From Planctomycetota bacterium (GTDB lineage Bacteria; Planctomycetota; UBA1135; UBA2386): a stretch of DNA of 64,000 nucleotides. The position numbers and the translations under genes were made by a program. Positions 1,339-33,058 of this stretch are shown here, piece by piece (the first letter of the stretch is position 1; each line of letters begins with the position of its first letter). The DNA is taken from the NCBI GenBank assembly GCA_036376355.1, contig DASVAL010000028.1, positions 19,402-83,401 of the forward strand, in the 5' to 3' direction. The notes beneath the pieces are model-generated. The model was given only the letters and a program-made list of their open reading frames with translations. It had not been told where the DNA came from and did no database searches.

Positions 1339-2079
1339 ATGAACCGCGACCGCTCCCTGCGATCCGTTGCCGCCGGCTTGCTCTGCGCCGCGCTCGCGGC
1401 GTGCGCGAGTTACGGCCGCCCCCTGTTCGAGATCGCGCCGGAGATCAATGCGACCCTGTACACGGGCCCGACGCTGATCGAACCGGGCGACGTGCTCGAC
1501 CTGCGCTTCGTGCGCAAACCCGAATGGAACCAGATCGCACAGGTGCGCGCGGACGGCCGCATCTCGTTCCCGGTCGTCGGTGAGCTGCGAGCGGCCGGCA
1601 AGACGATCGCGGAGCTCGACCGCCAGCTCGTCGCGACCTACGGCCAGGTGCTGGAGGATCCGTCGCTGCTGTTGAACGTCGGCGGCGACCGCGGCGGCGA
1701 GGGCCGCGACTCGCCGCAGGCAATCACGATCAGCGGTGAAGTGCGCACGCCCGGGGGCCTCACGATCGTCGGCGAGCGCATCACACTGATCGAGGCGATC
1801 GGACGCGCAGGCGGCCACCTGAAGGACACGGCACTGCTCGGCAACACACTGATGATGCGCAGGTCCCCGACGACTGGCTTGTACGCGTCATGGCGGATCG
1901 ATGCCCGCGAGGACCACTGGGAGAAGTCGCAACCGGTCTACCTGCAGCGTCACGACATCATCGTCGTCCCGAACACTCCTATCGACAACGTGAACATATG
2001 GGTCGATCAGTACATCAACAAGATGATACCCACGGGCCTGACAACGTTCGCTCTGGGTATCTTCGTCGCCGACCGCTGA
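1339..2079 (+). CDS. wza: Polysaccharide export outer-membrane lipoprotein, Wza/KpsD/EpsA family (Poly_export + SLBB)
   Basis: Lipobox LAAC after a basic N-region. PGDVLDLRF...ISFPVVGELRAAGKTIAELDRQL is a Poly_export motif. ITISGEVRTPG matches the Wza pattern. Confidence 0.8.
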   Translation: MNRDRSLRSVAAGLLCAALAACASYGRPLFEIAPEINATLYTGPTLIEPGDVLDLRFVRKPEWNQIAQVRADGRISFPVVGELRAAGKTIAELDRQLVATYGQVLEDPSLLLNVGGDRGGEGRDSPQAITISGEVRTPGGLTIVGERITLIEAIGRAGGHLKDTALLGNTLMMRRSPTTGLYASWRIDAREDHWEKSQPVYLQRHDIIVVPNTPIDNVNIWVDQYINKMIPTGLTTFALGIFVADR

Positions 2080-4845: not shown

Positions 4846-6519
4846 ATGCAGTCACTTCCATGCCCCGAGCCGGTGATCCGGCTCCTACCGCCCCGCTCTC
4901 TCTCGTCGACCCTCGCCTCCTGTGCCGCTGCGGCATTCTTCGTGCTTCTCTCCGGCTGCGACAGCTCGCGCTCCTCGGCGACTCCCGCCACGCCCACCGG
5001 TGGTGAGGACCCCACGCTGCCCGTCTCGTCGATCACCTGGACGCCGCTCGTCCCGCACCAGGACACGCGCAACGTGTACCTGAGCTCGAGCACCGGCAAC
5101 GACGGCCACAACGGCCTGTCGCCGCAATCGCCGAAGGCGACGCTCGGTGCCGCGCTGCAGCTGATGCGCAACGGGTATCCCGACTGGCTGCACATCCGGC
5201 GCGGTGATCAGTTCTCGGGCGGTCTCGGCGACTGGTGGCTCTCCGGCCGCGCGGAGGGCAAGCCGATGGTCATCACGACCTACGGCCCGTCCGCGAACCG
5301 GCCCGTGTTCAACTGCGGCAACGGCGACGGAATCAACCTCTGGTCAGGTCCCGTCCACGACGTCGCGTTCGTCGGGATCCACCTGCTCGCGAATGGCTAC
5401 AACGGCGTCAACGGGAATCCGTACGGGCTCACGATCCTGTCGCAGACGACGCGCGTCCTGTTCGAGGACATGAAGATCGAACGGTTCTTCACGAACATCC
5501 GCATGCAGGGCGCGCACGTGCGCGGCGTCAAGATGCGCCGCTCGGTCATCATCGACGCCTTCACGACGGGTTCGGCGCACGCCCAGGGCATCTACGTCGA
5601 GGGCCTCAAGGACCTCCTGCTCGAGGAGTGTGTCTTCGACCACAACGGCTGGAACGAGAACGTGCCCGGAGCCATCGCGACGATCTTCCGGCACAACTGC
5701 TACCTCCAGGGTGACACGAACAACTGCGTCGTCCGCGGCAACATCATCGCGCGCGCGGGGTCGCACGGCCTGCAGGCGCGATCGGGCGGCGTGGTGCACA
5801 GCAACCTGTTCCTCGGCAACTCGATCAACCTGCTCGTCGGCAGCAACACCGCCAACAACGGCGCGCTCACCGCGAGCGTGATCGGCAACGTGATCCTCGA
5901 TGGCAAGAACATCAGCCCCGGCGAACCGCGCGGCTGGAGCGCATCGTTCCAGTGCCTCGCGGCTGGCGAAGTCGCCTACAACATCGCCGCGCACCAGGTC
6001 ACGGGCACGAACCCGCAGAACTACGAGTTCAACAGCAACCAGGGCCAGGGCATCAGGAACGTCGACTTCCACCACAACGTCAGCTACCGCTGGGGCGCCC
6101 CGCTCGCCGTGAACGGCGGCAACTACTCGAACTTCCGGATGCACGACAACGAGCTGCAGGAGTTCGGCGGTAGCGACCTGGTCAGGACGATGTACGGCGG
6201 TGGCGGGTTCTACTCGGCGAACAACCGGATCTTCACGACCGCCTCGAGCAACGCGTGGATGAACCACCAGGGCTCGCTCGTGTCGCTGCCGACCTGGAAG
6301 TCGATGGTCGGCGACACGTCGTCGAGCTCCCAGCAGATGAGTTACCCGGCGGCATCACAGACGATCGCCGGCTACGACCTCACGGTCGGCGGCAGCGGCA
6401 GCCTCGCTTCCTTCCTCTCGCGCGCGCGGGATCAGTCACGCACGAACTGGGACGACCGGTTCTGCGGGACGCACGTCTCCGCGCACTTCCGCAACAACTT
6501 CGGCGTCGTCGTACCGTGA
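4846..6519 (+). CDS. Secreted right-handed beta-helix lipoprotein (pectate-lyase-fold; candidate polysaccharide lyase/hydrolase), paralog A
   Basis: Signal peptide + lipobox LLSGC. Parallel beta-helix repeats (RGNIIARAGSHGLQARSGGVVHSNLFLGNSINLLVG; VIGNVILDG; NVDFHHNVSY). C-terminal ...HFRNNFGVVVP. Alternative start ATG 4801. Confidence 0.7.
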   Translation: MQSLPCPEPVIRLLPPRSLSSTLASCAAAAFFVLLSGCDSSRSSATPATPTGGEDPTLPVSSITWTPLVPHQDTRNVYLSSSTGNDGHNGLSPQSPKATLGAALQLMRNGYPDWLHIRRGDQFSGGLGDWWLSGRAEGKPMVITTYGPSANRPVFNCGNGDGINLWSGPVHDVAFVGIHLLANGYNGVNGNPYGLTILSQTTRVLFEDMKIERFFTNIRMQGAHVRGVKMRRSVIIDAFTTGSAHAQGIYVEGLKDLLLEECVFDHNGWNENVPGAIATIFRHNCYLQGDTNNCVVRGNIIARAGSHGLQARSGGVVHSNLFLGNSINLLVGSNTANNGALTASVIGNVILDGKNISPGEPRGWSASFQCLAAGEVAYNIAAHQVTGTNPQNYEFNSNQGQGIRNVDFHHNVSYRWGAPLAVNGGNYSNFRMHDNELQEFGGSDLVRTMYGGGGFYSANNRIFTTASSNAWMNHQGSLVSLPTWKSMVGDTSSSSQQMSYPAASQTIAGYDLTVGGSGSLASFLSRARDQSRTNWDDRFCGTHVSAHFRNNFGVVVP

Positions 6520-6526
6520 GCCCGGT

Positions 6527-6562
6527 GCGCCGCCGCGCCTGAGCACGGCGGCGCCTTTTCTT
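6527..6562 (+). terminator. Rho-independent terminator after beta-helix gene A
   Basis: Stem GCGCCGCCG / CGGCGGCGC with a 10-nt loop, followed by CTTTTCTT. Confidence 0.55.
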
Positions 6563-6807
6563 CCGACGCGCGCACGCTGGGGAACTGCGGGCCGTCCGGG
6601 CAATCGAGGGATCCACCCGCCCGGGCACCAGCACCTACCTGATGCTGGAGGAACCGCGGCCGCGCCGAGGCGCCGCAGGGGCTTTCCCGGATTGCCGCAG
6701 CAGATCGCCCCGGCTAAGCCCACACGCCCTCGAACGAGGCACACGTGTCGGCATCGATCCGCTGGAACCAGGACATCCCCCACCGCTCGCGAGCCCGTCG
6801 CCGCTGG

Positions 6808-8376
6808 ATGCAGGCGGACGCACCGTTCGCGCTGCTGGCCCTGCTGCTGAGCTGCGGCACCGGATCACCGCCGGCGCAGGAGCCCGGCTGGACCGAGCAC
6901 GAACCGGCGCGTAGCACGCGGCGTGTCTACCTGAGCTCGAGCACCGGCAACGACACGAACGACGGCCTGACGCCCGATTCGCCGAAGGCGACGATCCCGG
7001 CGGCCACGCGGCTGCTGCGCACCGGCAACCCTGACTGGCTGCTCATCAAGCGCGGCGACGAGTTCCGCAGCGGGCTCGGCGAATGGGTGCGGTCGGGCGG
7101 CTCGAAGTGCGCGCCGATGGTCGTGACGTCGTACGGCAACGGCTCGGCGCGCCCGCTGTTCCGCTGCGGCGTCGACGACGGGCTCACCATGCACACGACG
7201 GCGATCCACGACGTCGCGTTCGTCGGACTGCACTTCGTCGCCGACGCGTACGACGGCGGCAATGGGCATCCGTACGGCATCAGCCTGCTGTCGCCGTGCA
7301 CGCGCGTGCTGATCGAGGACTGCAAGATCGAACGGTTCGGCACGAACATCCGCTTCCAGGGGGCCGACCACCGCAACCTCGAGCTGCGCCGGTCGGTCAT
7401 CGCCGACGCGTTCACGACCGGCAAGGCGCACTCGCAGGGCATCTACGTCGAGGCGCTCACGGGCTGCCTGATCGAGGAGTGTGTCTTCGACCACAACGGC
7501 TGGCGGCCGAGCGTCGACGGAGCCGTGCCGACGATCTTCCGGCACAACATCTACGTGCAGGGAGACACGAAGAAGGTGGTCATCCGCGGCAACGTCATCG
7601 CACGCGGTGGCTCACACGGCCTGCAGGCGCGATCGGGCGGCGTGATCCGCGACAACCTGTTCCTCGCCAACTCGATCAGCCTGCTCGTCGGCAGCACGAC
7701 CGGCAACGACGGCGCACTGCAAGCGAGCGTGATCGGCAACGTGATGCTCGATGGGCGGGACATCGACGCTGCCGAACCACGCGGCTGGGCAGCGCAGTTC
7801 CAGTGCCTCGCGTCGGGCGAGATCGCCTACAACGTGGCCGCGCACCAGGTCTCCGGCACGGCTCCGCTGTGCTTCGAGTTCAACAGCAAGGCTGGCGCGG
7901 GCATCAACAACGTCGACTTCCACCACAACGTCAGCTACCGCTGGGGCGGCGGCGTGAGCCTCTCGGGCACACACTTCTCCGCATTCGAGTTCCGCGACAA
8001 CGAACTCCAGGACTCCGGCTCGAGCGCGCTGATCCGCGCCGACTCGGAGAGTCCGCTCGCGGGGATCTCCACGGCGAACAACCGGCTCCACACCGGCGCA
8101 CCGGCTGGCGCGTGGATGTTCTTCAACGGTCGGCAGCTCTCGTTGCCGGCCTGGAAGACGCTCGTCGCGGATGACACGTCCGTCGCCCAGCAAGTCGCCT
8201 ACAAGAACGCGGACGAGACGATTGCCGAGTACGACCGCGCGACCGGAGGCAGCGGCAGCCTCGATTCGTTCCTCGCGCGCGTGCGCAACCAGTCGCGCGC
8301 GAACTGGAACGATCGGCTCGTCGGCACCAACGTGGCTGCGCACTTCCGCGGCAACTTCGGCGTCGTCGTGCCGTGA
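6808..8376 (+). CDS. Secreted right-handed beta-helix lipoprotein, paralog B (tandem duplicate of 4846-6519)
   Basis: Lipobox LLSCG. Collinear similarity to paralog A along the whole length (VYLSSSTGND..GL.P.SPKATI, FRHN.Y.QGDT, RGN.IARGGSHGLQARSGGV, NVDFHHNVSYRWG, ...HFRGNFGVVVP). Confidence 0.7.
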   Translation: MQADAPFALLALLLSCGTGSPPAQEPGWTEHEPARSTRRVYLSSSTGNDTNDGLTPDSPKATIPAATRLLRTGNPDWLLIKRGDEFRSGLGEWVRSGGSKCAPMVVTSYGNGSARPLFRCGVDDGLTMHTTAIHDVAFVGLHFVADAYDGGNGHPYGISLLSPCTRVLIEDCKIERFGTNIRFQGADHRNLELRRSVIADAFTTGKAHSQGIYVEALTGCLIEECVFDHNGWRPSVDGAVPTIFRHNIYVQGDTKKVVIRGNVIARGGSHGLQARSGGVIRDNLFLANSISLLVGSTTGNDGALQASVIGNVMLDGRDIDAAEPRGWAAQFQCLASGEIAYNVAAHQVSGTAPLCFEFNSKAGAGINNVDFHHNVSYRWGGGVSLSGTHFSAFEFRDNELQDSGSSALIRADSESPLAGISTANNRLHTGAPAGAWMFFNGRQLSLPAWKTLVADDTSVAQQVAYKNADETIAEYDRATGGSGSLDSFLARVRNQSRANWNDRLVGTNVAAHFRGNFGVVVP

Positions 8377-15599: not shown

Positions 15600-16617
15600 G
15601 ACGGAGCCGCCGCGCGAACTGCAGCACGCCGAGGAGCTCGGGCAGCTTCCCCGCGACGCAGGCGAACGCGTAGAAGCAGCTCTCCGCGCGGACACGTCCG
15701 CGGCGCCTCGCCAACCGGTACGCGCCGCGCGCAGGCCACGCTGCGGCAGCGGCAACCATCAGCCCGGGCACGCCGTACGCGGCGACCGCACCGAGCGCCA
15801 GCGCCGGAGCGAGTGCGCCCCAGACGACCATGCGCGCGACCTCGCGCGCGCGGAACCTCTCGGGACCACCGCGATGCCTCCACCACGACTCGGCACAGGC
15901 GCGGCCGTTGCGCATGCTGCGCGCCCACCATTGCCGCCAGCTGTGCATCGCGGCGTCGTGCCGCATCATCGGCGCGGCCAGGCACTGCAGCCGCCACCCG
16001 AGCCGCCGCAGGCGCAGGCAGAGCTCGGGTTCCTCGCCGGCCGCGAACGTCGCGTCGAAGCCGCCGGCGGCCACGAGCGCGCTGGTCCGGAACATCGCGA
16101 CGCCGCCGCATTCGTCGATCGCGCCAGCCGGCACGTCGAGCTCGATGTCGCAGAGCAGGTTGTACGGGGAAGCAGCGGGCACTTCCTCGCGCGACCGCCC
16201 CGTCACGACGCCGAGCGCCGGATCGCGCTGCAGTGCCTGCGCCCCGGCCTGCAGCCAGCCGCTCGCGAGACAGCAGTCGCCGTCGACGAACTGCGTGCAG
16301 AAACCGTCGCCGGCATCGCGGCGGCGCAGCAGCGCGAAGCCCTCGTTGCGCGCGCGCGCGGCCGAGAACGGGGTGCCGCGATCGAGCTCGAGCACGTCGA
16401 CGCCGAGCCGCTTCGCGATCGCGACGCTCCCGTCGCTCGATCCCGAGTCGACGTAGACCACGCGCCTGCACTGGGCGAGCACCGACTGCAGGCAGGCCTG
16501 CAGGCGTGCCGCCTCGTTCCTGCCGATGACCACGCATTCGACGCCGGCTACCGCGCTCGCACCTTCGCGCTGGCCCGCAACCGCCGCACCGGTCGTCGTG
16601 TCCGAAGCAGTTCTCAT
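15559..16617 (-). CDS. Glycosyltransferase family 2
   Basis: VECVVIGRNEAARLQACLQS...VVYVDSGSSDGS; DGDCCL; C-terminal TM region. ATG overlaps the stop of the upstream Wzy-like gene. Confidence 0.7.
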   Translation of the reverse strand: MRTASDTTTGAAVAGQREGASAVAGVECVVIGRNEAARLQACLQSVLAQCRRVVYVDSGSSDGSVAIAKRLGVDVLELDRGTPFSAARARNEGFALLRRRDAGDGFCTQFVDGDCCLASGWLQAGAQALQRDPALGVVTGRSREEVPAASPYNLLCDIELDVPAGAIDECGGVAMFRTSALVAAGGFDATFAAGEEPELCLRLRRLGWRLQCLAAPMMRHDAAMHSWRQWWARSMRNGRACAESWWRHRGGPERFRAREVARMVVWGALAPALALGAVAAYGVPGLMVAAAAAWPARGAYRLARRRGRVRAESCFYAFACVAGKLPELLGVLQFARRLRLTTARSRGPARPH

Positions 16618-17978
16618 GACCAGGCGTGCATCCGATCCCGCACCAGCATGGTCGATCGCGCTTCGCCGGCGCGGGACGTGACGCCCGACGCGAGCGACAC
16701 GAGGCCGCCGACGACCACCGTGTAGATCGGATTGATCATCGCGTTGAACATGCAGTCGGCGACGAAGATGCAGACGACGGCGACGAGCGCTGCAACGCCG
16801 GCCATGCGCGGGTGCGCCCATCGACGCTGCGTCGTGTGCCGCAGCAGCGACGTGATCGGCGCGTAGTGCACCACGAAGAACAGCGTGAGCCCTATCAGGC
16901 CGAAGCAGGTCACGGTGATCAGCCAGAAGCTGTCGAACGCGTAGGTCAGTGGCTCCTCTTCGGGGCCCATCGGCGGCGTGAAGCCCCACGCCGACCATCC
17001 GAGCAGCGGGTGCTCCCAGATGCCCGACATGAAGGCCTCTTCGGAGCGGATCCGGAACGCGACGGAGCTCGCGCGCTCGGGTGCGTGCTGCCCGATCAGC
17101 TCTACCACTTCCTTCGCTTGCCAGCCGCCGAGCACACGCGCACCGACGAACACCGCGGGAACAGCCATCAACGTGTAGCCGGGCAGCGCGCCGCCGGTCC
17201 GGCGCAGTGCAACGACCGCCGCGATGCCCACGCCCATCAGCACGAGCGCGCCGAGCGACTTGCACAGCACGGTCGTGCCGCCGAGCAGCAGCAGCAGCGG
17301 AAGGACCGGCATGCCGAACAGGCGGCGCAACCCGCCGTAGCGCCACAACGAGAAGCCGGCGATCGAGGCGGCCGCCATCCACAAGCCGACCATCAGGCCG
17401 TGCTCCATGAACACGAGCGGCCGGTAGCCGCCCCCGCGCATGTGCTGGTTGAAGCTGTGCTGCGCGAAGCCATAGACCGTCGCGTGCAGCTGCGGACTCA
17501 TGCGCACTTCGTAGAGACAGAACGGCACGTAGACGAGTCCACCGATGAACAGACCGCGCGCGAGCTTGTCGATCCCGCCGAGGTCGCGGAACAGCACGCG
17601 CCCGAACAGGTACGGCAGCCCCCACTCGACGGTGGAGCCCAGCGTGACCGAGACCGCGTCGTACATCGGATGGCCGTTCGCGTACGAAGACGCTGCCGGC
17701 ACGAGGCACCACGCGAGCATCGGCAGGTCGCACCAACCGAAGCGCGCAGTGTCGAGCCAGTGCCCCGCGTAGAAGAGCATGCCCAGCGCCGCACCGAGGA
17801 CGATGGCGAAGCCCTTCGTGTAGTCGGGCAACCCTGGCATCGGGTACGCGGTCGTCGGCAGGAACAGCCAGCCGCCGATCACGACCAGCAGCACCGCCTT
17901 GCGCGCCGGCAGCATCCTGAACGCGAGGATGCCGAGCAGCGGCCAGCCGAACATCGCGAGGTGGACGAGGAACGTCAT
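16614..17978 (-). CDS. O-antigen ligase / Wzy-like polymerase family membrane protein (Wzy_C domain)
   Basis: Polytopic membrane protein with a characteristic large loop RIRSEEAFMSGIWEHPLLGWSAWGF...YAFDSFWLITV. Confidence 0.7.
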   Translation of the reverse strand: MTFLVHLAMFGWPLLGILAFRMLPARKAVLLVVIGGWLFLPTTAYPMPGLPDYTKGFAIVLGAALGMLFYAGHWLDTARFGWCDLPMLAWCLVPAASSYANGHPMYDAVSVTLGSTVEWGLPYLFGRVLFRDLGGIDKLARGLFIGGLVYVPFCLYEVRMSPQLHATVYGFAQHSFNQHMRGGGYRPLVFMEHGLMVGLWMAAASIAGFSLWRYGGLRRLFGMPVLPLLLLLGGTTVLCKSLGALVLMGVGIAAVVALRRTGGALPGYTLMAVPAVFVGARVLGGWQAKEVVELIGQHAPERASSVAFRIRSEEAFMSGIWEHPLLGWSAWGFTPPMGPEEEPLTYAFDSFWLITVTCFGLIGLTLFFVVHYAPITSLLRHTTQRRWAHPRMAGVAALVAVVCIFVADCMFNAMINPIYTVVVGGLVSLASGVTSRAGEARSTMLVRDRMHAWS

Positions 17979-20764: not shown

Positions 20765-22702
20765 TCAGACGGACGCGCGGTGCTCGCGCGCCCACCACGC
20801 GAGCACGAACAGGGCCCAGACCCTCGACCAGTAGAGGCCTGACGCACGCGCGCGGAAGGAGTCCCAGAGGTTCCCCACGACGCGCGCGTCGAGACCACAC
20901 GCATCGCAGAGCCCGCGGTCGCGCAGGACGCCCTCGACCTCCTTCGCGAGCCGCTGCCGCAGCCAGACGTCGAGCGGCAGCACGAAGCCCGCCTTCGGCC
21001 GGTCGAAGAGCGCTGCGTCGAGCTCGGGCATCGCGAGCTGCCGCAGCAGCATCTTGTTGCCGAGCGGCTCGAACCGCTCGCGCTCGGGCACGTTCGCGAC
21101 CGCCTCGACGACGCGGTGATCGAGCAGCGGCACGCGCGTCTCGAGCGACGCCGCCATGCTCGCGGCATCCGTGTCGCGCAGCAGCCGTTCGCCGACGAAG
21201 TTCGCCATCTCGAGGACCGACACGGCGTGCGGCGTCGCAGCATCGCCGGCGAGGTCCTGCAGCTCCTCGAGGCGATCGAGCGGCATCCCGCAGCGCTGCG
21301 ACGGGGCATCGTCGCGCACTACGAGCTGGCGCGCGAACTCGGCCGAGAAGAGCCCGTAGCATGTCTGGTAGAGCTCGACGAGCCGGCCGCGCGTCGCGAG
21401 CACGTCGGCGACCTTGCCCCAGCGCGTCTGCGGTGGAACGGCGCGGCGCACGCCGTACCTGGCCCGCAGCAGGCCGCGCGCGAGCATGCGCAACGCACCA
21501 CCCGGCACCACCCGGGCCAGGCGGGCGAAGCGCGCAGCGCGCGGGATGTCGCGGAAGCTGCGGTAGCCGCCGAACAGCTCGTCCCCGCCCACGCCCGACA
21601 GCGCGACGGTGATGCCCGCGTCGCGCACGGCGCGGCTGACGAAGTACGTGTTGATCCCGTCGAACGTCGGCTGGTCGATGCTGCGCAGCGCCGGCTCGAG
21701 CAGGTCGAGGAAGCGCTGCTGGGTCAACCGCACCTCCGCGTGATGCGTGCCGAGCGCCGCGGCGACGCGGTGCGCGTAACGCGTCTCGTCGTACTGCTGC
21801 TCGTCGAACGCCACGTGGAACGTGCGCAGACGGCCGGTCGTCGAGCCGGCTCGCGCGGCCAGCGCGGCGACGGCGCTCGAGTCGATGCCGCCCGAGAGGA
21901 ACACGGCGAGCGGCACGTCGCTGATCAGGTGCTGGCGCACGACCGTGCGCAGCTCGTCCTGCAGCTTCGCGACGCCGTCGGCGGCCGGCCGCGACGAAGG
22001 CAAGCGCCAGTACAGCTCGGTGCCGCTGCACTCGCCGCGCGCGTTCAGCGTCACGACGGTCGCCGGCGGCAGCATTCGCACGCCCTCGATGATGGTGCCG
22101 GGACCGGTCACGAAGCCGTTCCAGACGTAGCGTGCGACGGCCGCGCGGGCGAGCCGCCGCGGCACGAGTCCGGTCGCGAGCAGCGCCCGCAGCTCCGACG
22201 CGAAGAGCACGGCGCGGCAGCCTTCTGGCTGCGTGACCTCGCAGAGGTAGAGCGGCTTGATGCCGAGCCGGTCGCGCGCGAGGACCATGCAGCGGCGGCG
22301 CGCATCCCAGATCGCGAACGCGAACATGCCGCACAGCCGCGACAGCGCACGCACGCCCCAACGCGCGTACGCCTGCAGCACGACCTCCGTGTCGCCACGC
22401 GATCGGAACGTCGCCCCGCCGGCCTCGAGCTCGCGCCGCAGATCGTGGAAGTTGTAGATCTCGCCGTTGAACGCGATCGCGTTGCCGGTGACCGGGTCGA
22501 CCATCGGCTGGTGGCCATCCGGCGACAGGTCGATGATCGCGAGCCGGCGGAAGGCGAGCACGGCCCCGTCCTGTCCCGGCCCACCGCTGAGCCACGTACC
22601 CGCGTCGTCGGGGCCGCGATGACGCTGCGCGCTCGCGGCAGCCTGCACGGCCCGGATCAGCTGCGGCCCGATGGCGCCGATCGACCCAGCGAAGCCGCAC
22701 AT
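20765..22702 (-). CDS. asnB: Asparagine synthetase (glutamine-hydrolysing) family amidotransferase, EPS-locus type
   Basis: N-terminal MCGFAGS (Cys2 nucleophile), GATase-2 domain, PP-loop SGGIDSS, 645 aa. ATG overlaps the stop of the upstream GT4 (TGATG). Confidence 0.85.
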   Translation of the reverse strand: MCGFAGSIGAIGPQLIRAVQAAASAQRHRGPDDAGTWLSGGPGQDGAVLAFRRLAIIDLSPDGHQPMVDPVTGNAIAFNGEIYNFHDLRRELEAGGATFRSRGDTEVVLQAYARWGVRALSRLCGMFAFAIWDARRRCMVLARDRLGIKPLYLCEVTQPEGCRAVLFASELRALLATGLVPRRLARAAVARYVWNGFVTGPGTIIEGVRMLPPATVVTLNARGECSGTELYWRLPSSRPAADGVAKLQDELRTVVRQHLISDVPLAVFLSGGIDSSAVAALAARAGSTTGRLRTFHVAFDEQQYDETRYAHRVAAALGTHHAEVRLTQQRFLDLLEPALRSIDQPTFDGINTYFVSRAVRDAGITVALSGVGGDELFGGYRSFRDIPRAARFARLARVVPGGALRMLARGLLRARYGVRRAVPPQTRWGKVADVLATRGRLVELYQTCYGLFSAEFARQLVVRDDAPSQRCGMPLDRLEELQDLAGDAATPHAVSVLEMANFVGERLLRDTDAASMAASLETRVPLLDHRVVEAVANVPERERFEPLGNKMLLRQLAMPELDAALFDRPKAGFVLPLDVWLRQRLAKEVEGVLRDRGLCDACGLDARVVGNLWDSFRARASGLYWSRVWALFVLAWWAREHRASV

Positions 22703-24045
22703 CAGCGTTGTGCGCTCTTCAGGTTGCCGTGCGCCGCGACGAGCAGTGCTTCGAGCTTGTCGATCTCGGACGCCGGATCGTGACGCTCGCGCACGCGCCG
22801 AGTGCCGGACTGCCCCATCCAATCGAGCCGTTTGCCCGTGGCGCAGACGGCCTCCTCCATCGCCTCGGTCAGCGCCTCGACACTGCCCGCCGGGACGAGC
22901 CATCCCTCGAGGTGCTCGCGCACGAGCTCCGGGATGCCGCCGACGTACGTCGCGATCACCGGCCGGCGCATCGCCATGGCCTCCATGATGGCGACCGGCA
23001 GTCCCTCGACGAAGCTCGGCAGGACCAGCGCGCGCGCCTTCAGCAGCAGGCTGCGCACCTCGCGCTCGTCGATCCACCCCGTGATCGTGACGAAGCGCTC
23101 GAGCCCGTGCGCGCGGATCGCCTTCTCGATCTGCGGACGCATCTCGCCGTCGCCGGCCAGGACCAGACGCGCATCGACGCCGCCTTCGCGCAGGCGCGAC
23201 ATCGCCTCGATCAACAGCATCTGCCCCTTCTGGGCCGTCAGCCTGCCGACGCTCACGAGCGTGCGCGACTGCGACGGAACCGGCTCGGAGCCGTCGAACA
23301 CGAACCGATCGATCGTACACCGCACGACGTGCACCTTGTGCCAGTCGGCCGGCTCGGCCCAGCGGCGGATCTGCGCCGCGCAGAAGCTGCTGATCGCCGC
23401 GACGAACGAGGCGTCGGCGACCTTGTCGCGCAGCGCGAATCCGCGCGGCGAGTCGAACTCGTCGGGACCGTGAACGGTCATGCTGTAGGAGAGTTCGCGA
23501 CCGCTGAGACAGCGCATCAGGCGCGCAACGGCCGCCGCGTTCGTGCCGAAGTGCACGTGCACGTGTCGAATGCCGTGGTCCTGGCAGATGCGCAGCAGCA
23601 CGGCCGCCTCGGCGACGTAGGCGAAGTGCCGCAGGAGGCCGCGATCGCTCGCGCGGCTCATGCGCAAGGCCATCCACAACGCACGCATCATCGCGCGCGG
23701 ACGCGTGACGGCCATCAGCATGGTCGCCAACAGGATCCGCGCCATGGACTGCTGAAGGCAAGTGATCGTCTGCGCGACCTCGGCGCGATCCTGCGGGTGC
23801 ACGAGCGCCGAGTCGCTGCGGCGGATCGACAGCCGCAGCACCGAGTGGCCACGCTGCTCCAATGCCGCGATCTCGCGCCGGATGAACGTGTGGCTCGCCT
23901 TCGGGTACTCGGTCGTCAGGTACGCGACACGCAGCCTGGCCCGCCCCGGAGGCAGCACCGGAGCGATCGGGTCGGACCGGGTCGATGTCGACTCCGGGAG
24001 CAACGTGGACGTCGTCGGGAGGGTGATGTTCTTGAAGGTCGTCAT
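22702..24045 (-). CDS. Glycosyltransferase family 4 (GT-B fold)
   Basis: EGLPVAIMEAMAMRRPVIAT is the GT1/GT4 motif. Sugar-transferase-like N-domain LRVAYLTTEYP. N-terminal start uncertain (24045 or 24114). Confidence 0.75.
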   Translation of the reverse strand: MTTFKNITLPTTSTLLPESTSTRSDPIAPVLPPGRARLRVAYLTTEYPKASHTFIRREIAALEQRGHSVLRLSIRRSDSALVHPQDRAEVAQTITCLQQSMARILLATMLMAVTRPRAMMRALWMALRMSRASDRGLLRHFAYVAEAAVLLRICQDHGIRHVHVHFGTNAAAVARLMRCLSGRELSYSMTVHGPDEFDSPRGFALRDKVADASFVAAISSFCAAQIRRWAEPADWHKVHVVRCTIDRFVFDGSEPVPSQSRTLVSVGRLTAQKGQMLLIEAMSRLREGGVDARLVLAGDGEMRPQIEKAIRAHGLERFVTITGWIDEREVRSLLLKARALVLPSFVEGLPVAIMEAMAMRRPVIATYVGGIPELVREHLEGWLVPAGSVEALTEAMEEAVCATGKRLDWMGQSGTRRVRERHDPASEIDKLEALLVAAHGNLKSAQR

Positions 24046-24194
24046 TTGGGCAGGTCCAGGGCCGCGCGGCGCGGGGTGGCTCGCACACCGGGGCCAATGA
24101 TCGTCGCCGCGCACGGGGGGAAGCTGACGCGGGCAAACACCTGAGACCCCGGCAGGGTCTTCACCGCTTCGACGCGTGATCGCGCCGGGGCACG

Positions 24195-25514
24195 ATGTCC
24201 GCGATGCGCGTACTGCTGATCGCGGAAGCGGCGAATCCCGAGTGGACGAGCGTTCCCCTGGTTGGTTGGTGTCAGGCCAAGGCGATCGCGAACTCCGTCG
24301 ACACGCACCTGGTCACGCAGGTGCGCAACCGCGAGGCGATCCTCCGCGCCGGCTACCGCGAGCCACAGGACTTCACGGCGATCGACTCCGAACGCGTGGC
24401 CGCGGGCGTCTACCGGTTCGCGACGTTCCTGCGCGGTGGCTCCGACAGGGGATGGACGACGGTCACCGCGCTCGAATCGTTGTCGTACCGGTATTTCGAG
24501 CGGCTCGTGTGGCGGCAGTTCGAGGCCCGACTGCGAGCGGGCGAGTTCGACCTCGTGCATCGTCTCACACCGCTGAGCCCGTCGATGTCGAGCTACATCG
24601 TGGGCGGGCTGCAGCGCCTCGGCGTGCCGTTCGTGCTCGGCCCGCTGAACGGCGGCCTGCCCTGGCCGCGCGGATTCGGCGCCAGGCGGTGGCAGGAAGG
24701 TGAGTGGCTGTCGTACCTGCGCGGCGCACACCGGCTGCTGCCATCTCATCGCGCGACCCGCAACGGCGCTGCTGCGATCCTGATCGGATCGCGCATCACG
24801 TGGCAGGAGATGCCGGCCCGCCACCACGCCAAGTGCGTCTACATGCCCGAGAACGGCATCGACCGCGCGCGCATCGACCCTGCACGCGAGCCGCTGCACC
24901 TGCCGCCGCTGCGCGTCGTGTTCGTCGGCCGGCTGGTCCCCTGCAAGGGCGTGGACATGCTGATCGACGCGGCGGCGCCGCTGGTCCGCGACGGCAGCGT
25001 CGTCGTCGAGATCATCGGCGACGGCCCGCTGCGCGGCGACCTCGAGCGCCAGGCGCGCGAGCTGCACATCGCGGCCGGCGTGACCTTCACCGGCTGGGTC
25101 GAACACGCGCTGCTGCAGAACCGGCTGCGCGGTGCGCACGCGTTCGCATTCCCGAGCATCCGCGACTTCGGCGGCGCGGTCGTGCTCGAGGCCATGGCGT
25201 CGGGGCTCGTGCCGGTCGTCGTCGACTACGGCGGCCCACCCGAGTCCGCGGCGGGCGACGCGGGCCTCCGGGTCCCGCTCGGCTCGCGCGAGGAGATCGT
25301 CGCCGGTTTCCGGACCCACTTCGCGGAGCTGGCGGCGAGTCCACAGAAGCTCGCGCAGTTCGCGGAACGTGCACGCGCGCGCGCGATGCTGTTCACCTGG
25401 GACCACAAGGCCGCCTGCTTGCGCGAGGTCTACCGCTGGGTGCTCGGACAGCGCGACAAGCCCGACTTCGGCCAGCCGTTCGCGCCGAAGGAATCGGTGC
25501 TGTCCGCGTCGTGA
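24195..25514 (+). CDS. Glycosyltransferase family 4
   Basis: MRVLLIAEAANPEW...; FGGAVVLEAMASGLVPVVVDYGG is the GT4 E-x7-E region. Divergent from the GT4/asnB operon. Confidence 0.8.
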   Translation: MSAMRVLLIAEAANPEWTSVPLVGWCQAKAIANSVDTHLVTQVRNREAILRAGYREPQDFTAIDSERVAAGVYRFATFLRGGSDRGWTTVTALESLSYRYFERLVWRQFEARLRAGEFDLVHRLTPLSPSMSSYIVGGLQRLGVPFVLGPLNGGLPWPRGFGARRWQEGEWLSYLRGAHRLLPSHRATRNGAAAILIGSRITWQEMPARHHAKCVYMPENGIDRARIDPAREPLHLPPLRVVFVGRLVPCKGVDMLIDAAAPLVRDGSVVVEIIGDGPLRGDLERQARELHIAAGVTFTGWVEHALLQNRLRGAHAFAFPSIRDFGGAVVLEAMASGLVPVVVDYGGPPESAAGDAGLRVPLGSREEIVAGFRTHFAELAASPQKLAQFAERARARAMLFTWDHKAACLREVYRWVLGQRDKPDFGQPFAPKESVLSAS

Positions 25515-25565: not shown

Positions 25566-25979
25566 TCAAGCCGTGTAGACCTCGAACCTCGGCGGTCCTT
25601 GGTGGCCTGCAGCCTGATTGCAGACTTCTTCGGCAAACCGCTGTGCACCGTCGCGACCCGTGAGCGGCAGGATCAGCGCAATCCGGTCCGCGGTCAGCCA
25701 GCCGGCCTCGTCGCCGACTCGGGCTCGCCGCCTGAACACCATCAGCAGTCGGAGCGCCTTGTGGGCGCTCTCGGCCGGCGACCCGACGTCGACGACGACC
25801 ACCGAGAACGGCGGCCGGCCGCGGTCGCGCAGCGCTTCCTGGCGCCGGATCAGGCCGAGCGTCTGCTCCGGGCTCGGCAGGCTCGCGAGCGGCGAGACCG
25901 TGCGATGCAGCGTCGTTCTGGGCCGTAGTCGTCCGTTCCCGAACCACCACGAAGACAACCGTCCACTGGGAGTCACCAT
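25566..25979 (-). CDS. Small cytoplasmic protein resembling a degenerate GGDEF C-terminal half; paralogous to the N-terminal domain of the adjacent sugar transferase
   Basis: AAGGAA RBS 9 nt upstream of ATG 25979. FSVVVVDVGSPAESAHKALRLL...RVGDEAGWLTADRIALILPLTGRDGAQRFAEEV aligns with YSVLVLELPEPKDLVAAKRLV...LLPGDDLGWLDDGRLALSLPLSDAAAAKAKAERL of the sugar transferase. Confidence 0.45.
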   Translation of the reverse strand: MVTPSGRLSSWWFGNGRLRPRTTLHRTVSPLASLPSPEQTLGLIRRQEALRDRGRPPFSVVVVDVGSPAESAHKALRLLMVFRRRARVGDEAGWLTADRIALILPLTGRDGAQRFAEEVCNQAAGHQGPPRFEVYTA

Positions 25980-26460
25980 GGCTTCCAGTTCCTTTCTTCT
26001 TCTGCTTGTCCGTCAATCGATCCGTCGATCGTCGAGACCGCAGAGACAGCCTCTGCGGCCCGTTTCACTGCAAGTCGCTACCCACTGTCGTTCCATTGCG
26101 TCCCATCCGGTGAATGCCCGCGAGTTCGCACGAGGTTCACCGGAGGGCGGGCCCACTCGTCACCGACGGGGGGGCCGCGGGCCGGGGGTGGGTTCGCTCC
26201 CTCGGGCTGCATCACGCAACCGACGGAGGCACGTCGGATCGCGGGTGCAGGTGCAGCGGAGATGCGTGCACGGGACGACACCGAAGCATGACGCTTCTCG
26301 CGGCCCGCGATGGCACCACCGAGTCGATCGATGAGACGAACACGTTCCGATCCCGGCCAGGGACAATCGAGCACCGCATGTGCGCAGCCGGTGAACGCCA
26401 CACACCGCGCGGGCGCGGCCGAACGGCCACGCAACCACATGGCGTCCGGGCGCGGCATGT

Positions 26461-27597
26461 TCACACGGCCCCCTTGCGCGACAGGACCGCGGGGACCGTC
26501 GCGCCGAGCAGGCGCAGATCGACCAGCGGCGACCGCTGCGCGATGTAGCGCAGATCCATGCGGACCCAGTCGTCGAAGTCGACGCCCTCGCGCCCGGACA
26601 CCTGCCAGAGGCCCGTGATGCCGGGGCACACGTCGAGGCGGCGCTGATGCCAGGACCGGTATGCTGGAACCTCGTCCAACGTCGGCGGCCGCGGTCCGAC
26701 CAGCGACATCTCGCCGCGCAGCACGTTCCACAGCTGCGGCAGCTCGTCGATGCTCGTCGCGCGCAGAATCCGGCCGACCGGGGTCACGCGCGGGTCGTTC
26801 TTCATCTTGAAGACCGGCCCGGACCGCTCGTTGAACTGCTGCAGCGCGGCCTTCATCGCCTCCGCGCCGTTCACCATCGTGCGCAGCTTGAAGAGCACGA
26901 ACGGCGTGCCGTGCAGGCCCGCACGCCGCTGGCGCAGGATCGCGGGCCCCGGCGACGTGAGCTTCACTGCCAGCGCCGCGGCGAGCAGCACCGGCAACGT
27001 GAGCAGCAGCGCGAGGCCAGCGCCCACGATGTCGACGCACCGCTTCCAGCGCGGCAGCGGGTCGAACAGCAGTTCCGCCAGCGGCCGCGTCGCGGGCGCA
27101 TCCACGGCCTGCGGCCGCGGCGACTGCACGTAGATCGTGTAGCGCACCAGCACCGTTTCGGCAGCGAGGCGCTCGGCCTTCGCCTTGGCGGCGGCGGCAT
27201 CACTGAGCGGCAGCGATAGCGCGAGCCGGCCGTCGTCGAGCCAGCCGAGATCGTCACCGGGCAGCAGCACGTTGCGCGCGAACGCGACGAGCCGCTTCGC
27301 CGCCACGAGGTCCTTGGGCTCCGGCAGCTCGAGAACGAGCACCGAGTAGTCTTGCGCCGCGCGGTCGGCCAGCGTCGCTTCGCGCTCGATCCGAGCCCTG
27401 ACCCACGCGGGCGTGAAGACGTCCTCGCTGCGGTCCGGGGCGGGCTCGTTGACCTCCTGCCGCCGCTCCTCGGGTGCGCTCGCCTTCTGCGATGCCGACC
27501 GCCGCGCTACGGGGCGCCCCTCGGCGGGCGTGCCCAGGGCACCGCGAATCGAGAGGTGCATCGCACTGAAGGACAGGTCCTCGGGCGGGTGATACAT
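26461..27597 (-). CDS. Polyprenyl-phosphate sugar-1-phosphate transferase (bacterial sugar transferase domain, PglC/WbaP-C-like) with an N-terminal degenerate GGDEF-like domain
   Basis: The TM CVDIVGAGLALLLTLPVLLAAALAV is followed by LTSPGPAILRQRRAGLHGTPFVLFKLRTM...FKMKNDPRVTPVGRILRATSIDELPQLWNVLRGEMSLVGPRP, the Bac_transf signature. Confidence 0.8.
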   Translation of the reverse strand: MYHPPEDLSFSAMHLSIRGALGTPAEGRPVARRSASQKASAPEERRQEVNEPAPDRSEDVFTPAWVRARIEREATLADRAAQDYSVLVLELPEPKDLVAAKRLVAFARNVLLPGDDLGWLDDGRLALSLPLSDAAAAKAKAERLAAETVLVRYTIYVQSPRPQAVDAPATRPLAELLFDPLPRWKRCVDIVGAGLALLLTLPVLLAAALAVKLTSPGPAILRQRRAGLHGTPFVLFKLRTMVNGAEAMKAALQQFNERSGPVFKMKNDPRVTPVGRILRATSIDELPQLWNVLRGEMSLVGPRPPTLDEVPAYRSWHQRRLDVCPGITGLWQVSGREGVDFDDWVRMDLRYIAQRSPLVDLRLLGATVPAVLSRKGAV

Positions 27598-27775: not shown

Positions 27776-28816
27776 GTGCTGCGTGAATTCCTCGCGCCGA
27801 AGGCGAAGACCGCGCACCGACGCGCCGGGATGAAAGCCCGGAAGCCGTCGCACGAACGTCCCTGGCATGATTCCCGCATGCCGCATGCGCACCGTTGCAT
27901 TCTCACCGTCAAGCCGCCGTTCGAGCTGCCGCTGGTGCTGTGTGGCCACGGCTGGTTTGCACTGGCTCCGCACGAGTGGGCCGGCGGCACCTTCTCGACG
28001 ATCCTGCGCGCCGACGGCGAACCGGTGCGCGCCGAGGTCCGCGCCGCCGCGCGCGGCCTCGCCGTGACCCTGCACTGCACGCGTCGCCTCGCGAGCCGCA
28101 CGGTCCAGGCACTGAAGCAGCAGCTCGCGCACATGCTGCGGCTCGACGACGACCTCGCGGCGTTCTGGCGGCTGTGCGCTGCACACGAACGACTCGGCTG
28201 GGTCGCGCAGCGCGGCGGAGGACGCCTGCTGCGCTCGGCGACCGTGTTCGAGGATCTCATGAAGCTCCTGCTGACGACGAACTGCACGTGGTCGTTGACC
28301 GAGATCATGGTGCGCAACCTCGTCGCGACCGCGGGCCCGCCTGGCCCCGACGGGAAGCGTGCGTTCCCGAGCGCTCTCGAGTGCAACCGCGGCGAGCGGT
28401 TCTTCCGCACGAAGGTCAAGGTCGGCTACCGCGCGCGCGCCGCGGCGGCGCTCGCGCGCCAGTTCGCGCGCGGCGAACTGCGTGACGAGCACTTCCTCGC
28501 GCCGGAGCTGCCGACCGAGGAGCTGCGCGAACGCGTGCAGGCACTCGACGGCTTCGGCCCGTACGCAGCCGGCCAGGCGCTGCGCCTGTTCGGCCGCTAC
28601 GACGACCTCGCGCTCGACTCGTGGTGCCGCGCGCGCATCGCCCAGCTGCTCGGGCGCCGCCGCGCGCCCGCCGACGCGACTATCGCACGGCTCTACGACG
28701 CGTTCACTGGTTACCGCGGGCTCGCGATGTGGTGCGATCTGACCGCGGAGTGGCACGGCGAGGGGACCAGGCCCGGAGCTGGTGGTTTGCGCGGAGCCGA
28801 CGAGTCGACGGCGTGA
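27776..28816 (+). CDS. HhH-GPD DNA glycosylase, AlkA-like (3-methyladenine DNA glycosylase II family)
   Basis: The HhH-GPD motif LDGFGPYAAGQALRLFGRYD matches the consensus. N-terminal AlkA_N-like region FEDLMKLLLTTNCTW. Start ambiguous (27776/27830/27878). Confidence 0.6.
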   Translation: MLREFLAPKAKTAHRRAGMKARKPSHERPWHDSRMPHAHRCILTVKPPFELPLVLCGHGWFALAPHEWAGGTFSTILRADGEPVRAEVRAAARGLAVTLHCTRRLASRTVQALKQQLAHMLRLDDDLAAFWRLCAAHERLGWVAQRGGGRLLRSATVFEDLMKLLLTTNCTWSLTEIMVRNLVATAGPPGPDGKRAFPSALECNRGERFFRTKVKVGYRARAAAALARQFARGELRDEHFLAPELPTEELRERVQALDGFGPYAAGQALRLFGRYDDLALDSWCRARIAQLLGRRRAPADATIARLYDAFTGYRGLAMWCDLTAEWHGEGTRPGAGGLRGADESTA

Positions 28817-29794: not shown

Positions 29795-29998
29795 CTGGCG
29801 CCACGATCAACTGCGGCGGCGTGACGATCAAGAGCGGCGCACAGTTCCGGCGCCGCGCGCAAGAACGGCGGCGCTCGGGCCAAGCAAGGCCTGGTGCACG
29901 CTGGCTACGGTCCTCGCAGGAATGAACAGCGCAGGGAACCAGGCCGATCGCGTTCGAACGGCCGCCCTCGCGCCGGTTCCGATCCGAGGAAACCACCA

Positions 29999-30943
29999 AT
30001 GACCGCAGTGCAATCGACCACTTCCGACCGCCCCCACAACCGCTACGCCCGGTGCATCGACGCGTCGAAACGCGTGCGCTGGGACATCGACCGCGACGTG
30101 ATCCGCGGCCGCGAGTTCGACTTCGCGAAGAAGTTCCTGCCCGACGGCCTGTCGCGCGTGCAGGAGCTGACGTTCCTGTCGGCCGCCGAACAGCGCCTGT
30201 TGAGCCAGGTCCAGGGCCGGACCTACGCGAACATGTTCGGGCTCGTCGAGCGCTTCATCGGCGCCAAGATCCTCGAGGTCAGCCGCGACCACTGGCTCGG
30301 CGACCAGACGGCACTCGAAGCGCTCGTGCGCTTTTCCGACGAGGAGCTGAAGCACCAGGAGCTGTTCCGCCGGCTCGAGCGCATGGTCGCGGCCGGCATG
30401 GCGTCCGGCTACGAGTTCGCGCCGCAGCCGAACGACGTCGCGGGCGCGGTGCTCGGGGCGTCGACCTGGGCCGTGCTCGCGCTCACCTGCAACATCGAGC
30501 TGTTCACGCAGGCGCACTACCGGCAGAGCATCGAGCCCGACGCGGAGCTCTCGGAGCTGTGGAAGGACGTATTCCTCTACCACTGGCGCGAGGAGTCGCA
30601 GCACGCGATCCTCGACGAGCTCGAGTGGGTGCGCGAGGACGCGAAGCTCTCGGCCTCGCAGCGCGACGCCGGGGTCACGGACCTGATCGCGCTCGTGGGC
30701 GCCGTCGACGGCATCCTGCAGGCGCAGGCGAAGGCCGACGCCGGGTACTTCGCCGGCGCATGCGGCCGCCAGCTGACCGCCGAGCAGGCCGCAGCCGTGC
30801 ACACGACGCTGCTGCGCGCCTATCGCTGGCAGTACATCGGCTCCGGGGTCAGCGACACGCGCTTCCAGAAGATCCTCGGCGGCATGATCGACGAGAAGCA
30901 GATGGCGCGCATCGGCGCAGCCCTCGCACCGATCCTGCAGTGA
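29999..30943 (+). CDS. Ferritin-like / di-iron carboxylate protein (AurF-like putative oxygenase), hypothetical
   Basis: GAGGAAA RBS. Two E...ExxH-type elements (DEELKHQELF; REESQHAILDE) plus conserved Glu residues in helical context. Divergent from the AraC gene. Confidence 0.4.
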   Translation: MTAVQSTTSDRPHNRYARCIDASKRVRWDIDRDVIRGREFDFAKKFLPDGLSRVQELTFLSAAEQRLLSQVQGRTYANMFGLVERFIGAKILEVSRDHWLGDQTALEALVRFSDEELKHQELFRRLERMVAAGMASGYEFAPQPNDVAGAVLGASTWAVLALTCNIELFTQAHYRQSIEPDAELSELWKDVFLYHWREESQHAILDELEWVREDAKLSASQRDAGVTDLIALVGAVDGILQAQAKADAGYFAGACGRQLTAEQAAAVHTTLLRAYRWQYIGSGVSDTRFQKILGGMIDEKQMARIGAALAPILQ

Positions 30944-32558: not shown

Positions 32559-32989
32559 GAGAACCTCCTTCGGGAGGTGAGCGATGTGAGTGTGAGGAAC
32601 GTGTGGTTGTCGGAGCCGCGGCGCGCCGTTCCCGATCGCGTCGCGGCCAGAGGTCGTCAGTGAGTCTGTGTGCGTCTTGTGTGCGTCTGTGTGCGAGAAA
32701 TGAGTGGGTCCGCCGGCGGGCGGCGGCCCGGATCCTGGTCGTTCGCGGAAGGCCGCGGGTTCCGGACGAGATCGCGACGCGGGCGCACGGAACCGCGCAG
32801 GCCGGTTGCATTGCGCCGTTGTCGCGACCGCGTGTCGGTCGCGTACGGACTTGCAGGCGTTCCCCCAGTTCCGCGCCGCGGCGATTGCTCGCCGCGGTGC
32901 GGGATCCGGAGCCGGTCGCTGCCGGCGGACACACGGTCGTTGCCCCCGTTGCCCGGGGGGCGCGGGTCTAACGAGCTTCCAAGGCTCGA

Positions 32990-33058
32990 GTCGAGGCGGG
33001 ATTCGAACCCGCTACCCGGAGTAGGTCTCCTGCTCTACCAATGAGCTACACGACAAGT
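32990..33058 (-). ncRNA. tRNA-like sequence with defective anticodon arm (possible tRNA pseudogene or tRNA-derived remnant)
   Basis: Reverse complement reads TGTCGTG-TA-GCTC-ATTGGTA-GAGC-A-GGAG-ACCTA-CTCC-GGGTA-GCGGG-TTCGAAT-CCCGC-CTCGACT-C. The D-arm and T-arm are canonical. The anticodon arm has only a 4-bp stem and 5-nt loop, and the acceptor stem has 2 mismatches. Total ~68 nt. Confidence 0.3.

Follow-up and report, generated by a model that had tools for sequence, protein, structure and literature searches.

What does a GGDEF-like domain do on the enzyme that initiates exopolysaccharide (EPS) assembly, and what is the role of a second copy that is encoded beside this enzyme as a free protein? 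This question is raised by a locus in a 64-kb stretch of an uncultured Planctomycetota genome (contig DASVAL010000028.1, GC content 70%), which we refer to as the window. Here, the gene of an initiating phosphoglycosyl transferase (PGT) with an N-terminal extension is accompanied by a small open reading frame (ORF) encoding a soluble protein, and both products contain the same degenerate domain, which we call mini-GGDEF (coordinates in Table 1). Judged from its conserved residues, mini-GGDEF may be a receptor module for cyclic di-GMP (c-di-GMP) that gates the initiation of EPS synthesis. We give this reading a probability of about 0.5. Both copies are probably switches that sense a signal and act on the synthesis of the sugar polymer.

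Both ORFs lie exactly where a preliminary description of this DNA had placed them and carry the peptides quoted there. Both are coding. The GC content at third codon positions (GC3) is 0.92 in the PGT gene, unbroken from the N-terminal domain into the catalytic domain. In the small ORF it is 0.80 overall and 0.87-0.97 over residues 20-90, and it falls in the last 30 codons. A sequence resembling a ribosome-binding site (AAAGGAA) is found upstream of the small ORF, and its product is identical (100%) to the NCBI entry 'MAG TPA: hypothetical protein VF384_03710 [Planctomycetota bacterium]'. The preliminary description had made its proposal depend on conservation of this ORF in related genomes, and conservation was indeed found. 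Homologues fall into five protein clusters with 48-100% identity, and those with 48-87% identity are located on other, independent metagenome contigs. Across these relatives the length, the start and the C-terminus (VYTA-stop) are kept, and in the closest one, L011, the ATG and the first codons are conserved as well. The dN/dS ratio of the small ORF is 0.175 between the window and L011 and 0.33 between L002 and L009, which shows purifying selection. Furthermore, the gene order PGT, small ORF, GT4 glycosyltransferase and asparagine-synthase-like amidotransferase (AsnB) recurs in L002, L003, L009 and on the contig of P0013. A profile search with the narrow alignment of the stand-alone proteins (A3) found two GTDB loci only.

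The small protein and the N-terminal domain of the PGT are paralogous, as had been proposed. BLASTP aligned the small protein to PGT residues 61-158 with an E-value of 2e-8 (38% identity over 64 residues), and over 108 profile-aligned positions the two are 28% identical. A search with hidden Markov models on the separate ORFs (--max) found only these two mini-GGDEF copies in the window. Their relationship to GGDEF domains, whose absence would have refuted the proposal according to the preliminary description, held up in profile as well as in structure comparison. The family profile, built from an alignment of 73 mini-GGDEF domain sequences (A1), matched diguanylate cyclases of the PDB with E-values of 9e-13 (3ign), 7e-11 (GcbC) and 2e-9 (WspR). 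The AlphaFold2 (AF2) model of the small protein (pLDDT 89.8) shows the nucleotidyl-cyclase (palm-like) fold with an alpha-beta-alpha-beta-beta-alpha-beta core and matches GGDEF structures; residues 1-34 are weakly conserved and modeled with low confidence. DSSP assigned the same order of elements to the PGT N-domain (helices 63-79, 97-110 and 134-147; strands 84-90, 116-121, 124-130 and 152-158), and the full-length PGT model matches GGDEF structures separately from its match to PglC.

In contrast to the preliminary description, which had aligned both proteins to the C-terminal half of GGDEF, the profile aligns to residues 8-118 of the 177 residues of 3ign, that is to the N-terminal two-thirds. 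The matched part reaches from the helix before beta1 (alpha1) through alpha3 and contains a 9-residue deletion. The C-terminal third (the alpha4-beta5 part) is missing and one short strand is found in its place. Neither window protein matches PF00990 in Pfam. The sole Pfam family touched by the small ORF is PF17853 (GGDEF_2), which is likewise degenerate and GGDEF-like, but the score is sub-threshold (16.6 bits, E=0.0096, residues 42-125; gathering cut-off 24.5). Also in the family as a whole, only 16 of the 73 members match PF17853 at E<0.1, and 19 match PF00990. Since gathering score, GG[DE]EF motif and full domain length all fail, mini-GGDEF is a GGDEF-superfamily derivative with homology at the superfamily level and not a PF00990 member in the strict sense.

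We counted individual residues over 266 mini-GGDEF domain instances aligned to the family profile. GG[DE]EF occurs in none of them (0/266). The equivalent pentapeptide typically reads D-x-x-R-[ILV], with TADRI in the small protein and DDGRL in the PGT, and the replacement reported earlier (DDGRL/ADRI) was therefore essentially right. The 9-residue deletion takes out the GTP/metal loop (D-x-FKxxNDxxGH), and the residue after beta1, the site of a metal-binding Asp in cyclases, is unconserved in the family. With both GG[DE]EF and the GTP/metal loop gone, the two copies are catalytically dead, in agreement with the preliminary description. The residues of the inhibitory site (I-site), by contrast, are conserved. 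The RxxD motif, located exactly five residues before the GGDEF-equivalent, has its Arg in 248 and its Asp in all 266 domains, 260 domains have an Arg where helix alpha1 ends, and 244 combine all three residues. In a HMMER profile alignment to the WspR GGDEF chain 9t28, R73xxD76 corresponds to R242xxD245, and the offset of 169 set by this match equates the alpha1 Arg with WspR R198. In WspR, R242 and R198 bind I-site c-di-GMP, and R198 is contributed by the neighboring GGDEF domain, so that two domains are bridged by an intercalated dimer of c-di-GMP (PMC2270323). Since the catalytic residues are lost and the I-site residues are conserved, we conclude that the family gave up the catalytic half of GGDEF but retained the residues for allosteric binding of the product. 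The preliminary description had left the choice between a c-di-GMP and a protein-interaction role. Conservation of the I-site amid catalytic loss narrows this choice and points toward c-di-GMP.

The enzyme that carries the fused copy is a monotopic PGT of the PglC-like type. PF02397 (Bac_transf) matches residues 185-372 with 205.4 bits (cut-off 27). The AF2 model (pLDDT 86, pTM 0.80) matches PglC in Foldseek with E=5e-14, 35% identity and a TMt of 0.75-0.78, and WbaP with E=3e-10. TIGR03025 reaches 274 bits and stays under its cut-off of 295.55 bits, because the N-terminal part of that model is absent from the protein. The PglC-like fold includes a predicted long helix that, by its position and by analogy to PglC, would be the re-entrant membrane helix of monotopic PGTs. 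An Asp-Glu pair, which we take to be the equivalent of the PglC catalytic dyad, is invariant in our 117-sequence alignment of PGTs (A2). This pair suggests an active transferase. The small monotopic core follows an extension of about 180 cytoplasmic residues. Large monotopic PGTs (monoPGTs) are defined by an N-terminal transmembrane bundle of four helices and the PF13727 domain of unknown function (DUF) (PMC10312794). In the window PGT, Pfam gave no PF13727 match, and the AF2 model has no helix before residue 63 apart from the GGDEF-like domain. Hence, the window PGT is not a large monoPGT of the WbaP/EpsZ type. The PGT protein is absent from a collection of 5.8 billion proteins (best match 70% identity) in which the small ORF is present; in the NCBI record it may lack an annotation or carry a flag.

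The two copies in the window differ in their I-site residues. The fused copy has lost the RxxD Arg (L112-P-G-D115) and kept R79, whereas the free copy has an intact RxxD (R87-V-G-D90) together with R53. The RxxD signature of degenerate c-di-GMP receptors is thus present in the small protein and absent from the fused copy. Among the 18 domains that lack the RxxD Arg, 15 belong to the window's own PGT clade. The free-standing gene was seen only beside, or plausibly beside, PGTs of this clade (window, L002-L004, L009 and the contig of P0013), and it probably also lies beside such a PGT at L014 plus L001. Because the fused copy lost the RxxD Arg and the free copy keeps all three residues, the free protein is the candidate ligand-binding half. 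The pattern suggests that the receptor is split: the RxxD half would come from the free protein and the Arg, in trans, from the enzyme. We also considered a strict rule, according to which a loss of the fused Arg goes along with the presence of a free copy, but L002 and L013 downgrade it to a tendency. The free copy is about 40% identical to the domains of the partner clade and about 37% to others, and these identity-based neighbors do not resolve its origin. A dominant-negative partner, which the preliminary description had suggested next to a regulatory one, is only one of several possible roles of the free copy.

This locus is an uncommon split form of a widespread family. A word-indexed protein search with the N-terminal 186 residues of the PGT alone gave no match in a database from which the PGT itself is absent, and we recovered the family via full-length PGT homologues. 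The same N-domain is found on about 110 of the 120 best homologues. An exhaustive profile search of 1.84 billion representatives gave 103 matches at E<=1e-30 and 2,213 at E<=1e-10. When we converted its score into an E-value, the best canonical GGDEF domain of the PDB (51 bits) would lie just under the E<=1e-10 line, and we therefore estimate roughly 10^3 clusters at 50% identity as an upper bound. Among the 145 best matches, the domain is followed by Bac_transf in 68 and occurs in two or three tandem copies in 14. Most of the short 'domain-only' matches were treated as contig-end fragments and not as free proteins, because their tails resemble PGT linkers.

Most family members have one to three copies on the cytoplasmic N-terminus of a small monotopic PGT. 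Such fusions occur in Planctomycetota and Desulfobacterota. Named planctomycete members come from strain Pla163 and from Pirellulaceae. Three tandem copies precede the Bac_transf PGT domain in P0128 (648 residues, Desulfobulbaceae), a double-copy form is found in a deltaproteobacterial metagenome-assembled genome (MAG), and a single-copy form in a 'Proteobacteria' MAG adjoins an ExeA-like ATPase gene (assigned by reading the ORF translation, no Pfam scan). The tandem copies of other lineages all keep RxxD, except for a Lys in the first copy of P0136, and the tandem arrangement hints at a multimer-based action. Other proteins carry the domain as well. P0209 (532 residues) has two copies ahead of a glycosyltransferase of the WecG/TagA/CpsF family. 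P0240 (371 residues) consists of a receiver, a mini-GGDEF with intact RxxD and PilZ, and it links mini-GGDEF to c-di-GMP signaling proteins outside the polysaccharide enzymes.

Databases label the members as 'sugar transferase' or 'hypothetical protein', and no Pfam or NCBIfam model covers the mini-GGDEF domain above threshold. Our literature search, aimed at links of PGTs (Bac_transf, priming glycosyltransferases) to GGDEF domains, c-di-GMP or the I-site, found no description of the architecture; a 2021 network study of monoPGT fusions could list it. The preliminary description is thus right that the architecture appears undescribed, but it is not peculiar to this locus, since about 10^3 clusters carry the domain. 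What is new is apparently a minimal GGDEF-derived family on initiating glycan-assembly enzymes that is widespread and unannotated. If our reading is correct, a minimal GGDEF derivative would join the c-di-GMP effectors that current Pfam models miss, and about 10^3 protein clusters would gain a better annotation.

How could such a module act on the transferase? The cytoplasmic mini-GGDEF domain, or domains, would bind c-di-GMP at the I-site remnant. An intercalated c-di-GMP dimer would sit on the RxxD of one domain and be completed by the alpha1 Arg of a second one, as in the WspR and PleD crystals. This ligand-bridged pairing could be intermolecular, occur between tandem copies or, in the window, join the free and the fused copy. 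Pairing would shift the oligomeric or conformational state of the attached PGT, and the changed state would gate the first membrane-committed step of a Wzx/Wzy-type EPS pathway. In the clade of the window, the free protein would dock on the N-domain of the enzyme and bring the ligand-binding half. While homology, fold, the lost catalytic features, the retained I-site residues, purifying selection and synteny are shown by the data, we infer that c-di-GMP is bound, that the two proteins form a heterodimer and in which direction (activation or inhibition) the effect goes. Control of PGTs through oligomerization has a precedent, since WbaP is a functional dimer (PMC10312794) and EpsW is proposed to promote an EpsZ dimer (PMC12802240).

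According to a 2025 study, post-translational control of Wzx/Wzy pathways is incompletely understood, and control by c-di-GMP is well characterized for synthase-dependent systems only (PMC12802240). Tentatively, mini-GGDEF might represent a new receptor class, with direct second-messenger control of Wzx/Wzy PGTs and of some WecG-type transferases. In the clade of the window, the receptor would be split between the enzyme and the free paralogue, and both would form one composite I-site around a c-di-GMP dimer; we consider this broader proposal possible rather than probable. If true, c-di-GMP would directly control not only synthase-dependent EPS systems but also the step at which Wzx/Wzy pathways are initiated. 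A soluble domain of about 100 residues, three of which are predicted to contact the ligand, on an enzyme whose in vitro assay is established, offers a directly testable entry point.

The preliminary description had named PelD and BcsE as analogues. BcsE is a poor one, because it binds c-di-GMP through its GIL domain, and PelD and PssE from Listeria monocytogenes are better. In function, mini-GGDEF most resembles PssE and PelD, which are degenerate-GGDEF I-site receptors in EPS loci, and the EpsW-EpsZ pair, in which a small partner acts on a PGT. PssE was predicted from a degenerate motif, RxxD and its gene in the EPS operon (pssA-E), and was then shown to bind c-di-GMP with a Kd of 0.79 uM and about two ligands per protein; it is essential for EPS synthesis (PMC4125290). 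Like mini-GGDEF, it has a degenerate GG[DE]EF, RxxD five residues upstream and a gene in an EPS cluster, and it acts post-translationally on polysaccharide synthesis (PMC4125290), the mode that we propose for mini-GGDEF. However, PssE (construct of residues 107-285) has a full-length GGDEF domain and belongs to a synthase-type pathway. Mini-GGDEF, in contrast, has about 100 residues with an internal deletion and no C-terminal third. It occurs on, or together with, a monotopic PGT in a Wzx/Wzy-type cluster, and its c-di-GMP binding is only predicted. WspR and PleD share the RxxD and alpha1 Arg positions and hold a sandwiched c-di-GMP dimer (PMC2270323). There, the ligand exerts product inhibition on an active cyclase, whereas mini-GGDEF has no cyclase activity and its output would be the attached transferase. 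In Myxococcus xanthus, the EPS genes are accompanied by that of EpsW, a small cytoplasmic protein of one domain, which activates the initiating monoPGT EpsZ post-translationally, probably via a dimer (PMC12802240). EpsW is a phosphorylatable receiver and EpsZ a large monoPGT, whereas here the partner has a GGDEF fold and the small-core PGT has its own paralogous domain. The small ORF has no Response_reg match in Pfam, so that the analogy to the EpsW receiver is functional only.

Three other explanations have to be weighed against a c-di-GMP receptor. The domain could be a ligand-independent interaction or dimerization module that joins PGT protomers or links the PGT to other pathway components such as the GT4 enzymes or the co-polymerase, with the free copy competing or bridging, and the Arg and Asp residues would then be structural or part of an interface. 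Tandem and split copies do suggest self-association, WbaP-type PGTs work as dimers (PMC10312794), and for EpsZ dimerization is proposed to be promoted by EpsW (PMC12802240). Loss of the C-terminal third of GGDEF and the invariance of the RxxD Asp even in the clade without the Arg fit this explanation as well. For a pure interface, however, it would be a coincidence that the three most conserved polar positions are the I-site residues of WspR in canonical spacing, and the RxxD-bearing degenerate GGDEF domains of EPS loci have so far been c-di-GMP receptors (PssE, PMC4125290; PelD, cited in PMC12802240). We regard a module of this kind as rather unlikely. Still less probable is the sensing of another nucleotide, such as GTP, (p)ppGpp, UMP or a UDP-sugar, as feedback on the use of undecaprenyl phosphate, as proposed for the WbaP DUF. 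Nucleotide binding is a property of the GGDEF fold, the fold matches include a ppGpp-bound PleD structure (9g85), and the accessory domain of WbaP has been assigned a UMP-sensing regulatory role (PMC10312794). But precisely the GTP-binding elements of the active site (A-site) are deleted, and the conserved residues fit the c-di-GMP I-site and not the A-site.

The 137-residue ORF could, finally, lack a function of its own and be what is left of a duplicated, decaying PGT gene, or an artefact of gene calling. DNA with 70% GC yields many spurious ORFs, GC3 drops toward the end of this one, and the stand-alone subfamily is rare (five protein clusters plus two GTDB genomes). A remnant would not be expected to show the low dN/dS ratios of the close pairs, the start, length and C-terminus kept at 48-87% identity and a confident AF2 fold, nor would its gene order be kept on at least four independent contigs. 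In addition, no PGT-like sequence follows the ORF, and its stop lies 52 nt from the convergent GT4 gene. We rejected a pseudogene remnant on the basis of dN/dS and synteny, and the whole explanation, which is largely refuted, appears very improbable.

Several observations also weigh against the proposed c-di-GMP receptor. There may be a structural reason for the conservation of the alpha1 Arg and of the RxxD Asp, and the latter is invariant even where the RxxD Arg is lost. At the position that, by our own mapping, presumably corresponds to PleD R390, Asp or Glu is found here. The combination of receiver, mini-GGDEF and PilZ in P0240 could equally mean that mini-GGDEF needs a separate c-di-GMP binder. 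The split pattern has exceptions, since the PGT of L002 keeps R-D-G-D and yet has a free copy, and the PGT of L013 has neither the Arg nor, over about 5 kb downstream, a free copy. Within the 64-kb window there is no GGDEF, EAL or PilZ gene, and a 481-nt gap separates the PGT gene from the small ORF, so that the two may not be co-expressed.

Table 1. Positions of the genes, domains and sequence motifs within the window.
Feature	Position	Strand	Basis or remark
Stand-alone mini-GGDEF protein, 137 aa, soluble, no transmembrane segment	25566-25979	-	ORF
GGDEF-like core of the small protein, aa 35-136	25572-25877	-	alpha1-beta1-alpha2-beta2-beta3-alpha3-beta4
R53, helix alpha1 of the small protein, aligned with WspR R198	25821-25823	-	profile alignment
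RVGD, R87-D90, intact RxxD I-site motif of the small protein	25710-25721	-	five residues before TADRI
TADRI, GGDEF-equivalent of the small protein	25680-25694	-	
Spacer, 481 nt, PGT stop to small-ORF start	25980-26460	-	
Initiating PGT, 378 aa, small monotopic core with N-terminal extension	26461-27597	-	ORF, PF02397
PGT aa 1-51, predicted disordered N-terminal tail, variable among homologues	27445-27597	-	pLDDT <50, coding GC3 0.83-0.93
Fused mini-GGDEF domain of the PGT, aa 61-158, fold as in the small protein	27124-27417	-	AF2, DSSP
R79, alpha1 Arg of the PGT, retained	27361-27363	-	
LPGD, L112-D115 of the PGT, RxxD site minus Arg	27253-27264	-	
DDGRL, GGDEF-equivalent of the PGT	27223-27237	-	
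Predicted long helix of the PGT, aa 183-214	26956-27051	-	AF2; conserved P-x-WKR motif ahead
D284-E285 in SIDELPQL, proposed Asp-Glu catalytic dyad	26743-26748	-	invariant in alignment A2
Adjacent GT4 glycosyltransferase	24195-25514	+	Pfam
Adjacent GT4 glycosyltransferase	22702-24114	-	Pfam
Adjacent asparagine-synthase-like amidotransferase (AsnB)	20765-22702	-	Pfam

The surrounding cluster includes genes for a Wza-like exporter and a Wzx-type flippase, for glycosyltransferases of the GT2 and GT4 types, for a deacetylase, an amidotransferase and FemAB/GNAT-like proteins; one of its ends holds a two-component pair. These genes support the assignment to a Wzx/Wzy-type EPS pathway. The two-component pair comprises the C-terminal end of a histidine kinase and a receiver-GerE response regulator (84-1212 and 1303-2079) directly upstream of the Wza-like gene. 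It marks the other end of the EPS cluster of about 27 kb, and its regulator is of the type found beside the small ORF in L001. Four strongly coding ORFs (1890-4352, 16614-17978, 27776-28816 and 29894-30943) have no Pfam match at E<0.001. One of them, encoding 454 residues, is located at the place expected for the Wzy polymerase; on the contig of P0013 a gene with a weak Wzy_C match follows AsnB.

The neighborhood of the PGT differs in other loci. In L013, the PGT (P0016) is preceded, at a distance of three genes, by a PAS-GGDEF-EAL gene and directly followed by a LuxR/GerE response regulator (805-2496 and 6252-6884). The PAS-GGDEF-EAL gene adds to the case for c-di-GMP. The 3' end of L014 and the 5' end of L001, both from the forest-soil sample ERZ1760231, overlap by 11 nt. 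If joined, they would give the order PGT, STAS protein, RsbW-like kinase, SpoIIE phosphatase, histidine kinase, GerE response regulator, small mini-GGDEF gene and GT4 genes, and this would set a partner-switching and two-component cassette between the two paralogues.

Scans of the spacer in the window on the gene strand for promoters, terminators and Rfam families gave no Rfam match, no sigma-70 consensus and nothing usable. The spacer contains a perfect 8-nt inverted repeat, CCGGTGAA-N21-TTCACCGG, at 26107-26143, approximately 127 nt upstream of the small-ORF ATG. The repeat could serve a regulator as its operator or form a hairpin in RNA. It lies within a block of about 50 nt that is near-identical in the closest relative L011, and it is absent from more distant loci. 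Elsewhere in the window, the sole Rfam match at gathering level is a single tRNA gene at 32988-33055 on the minus strand.

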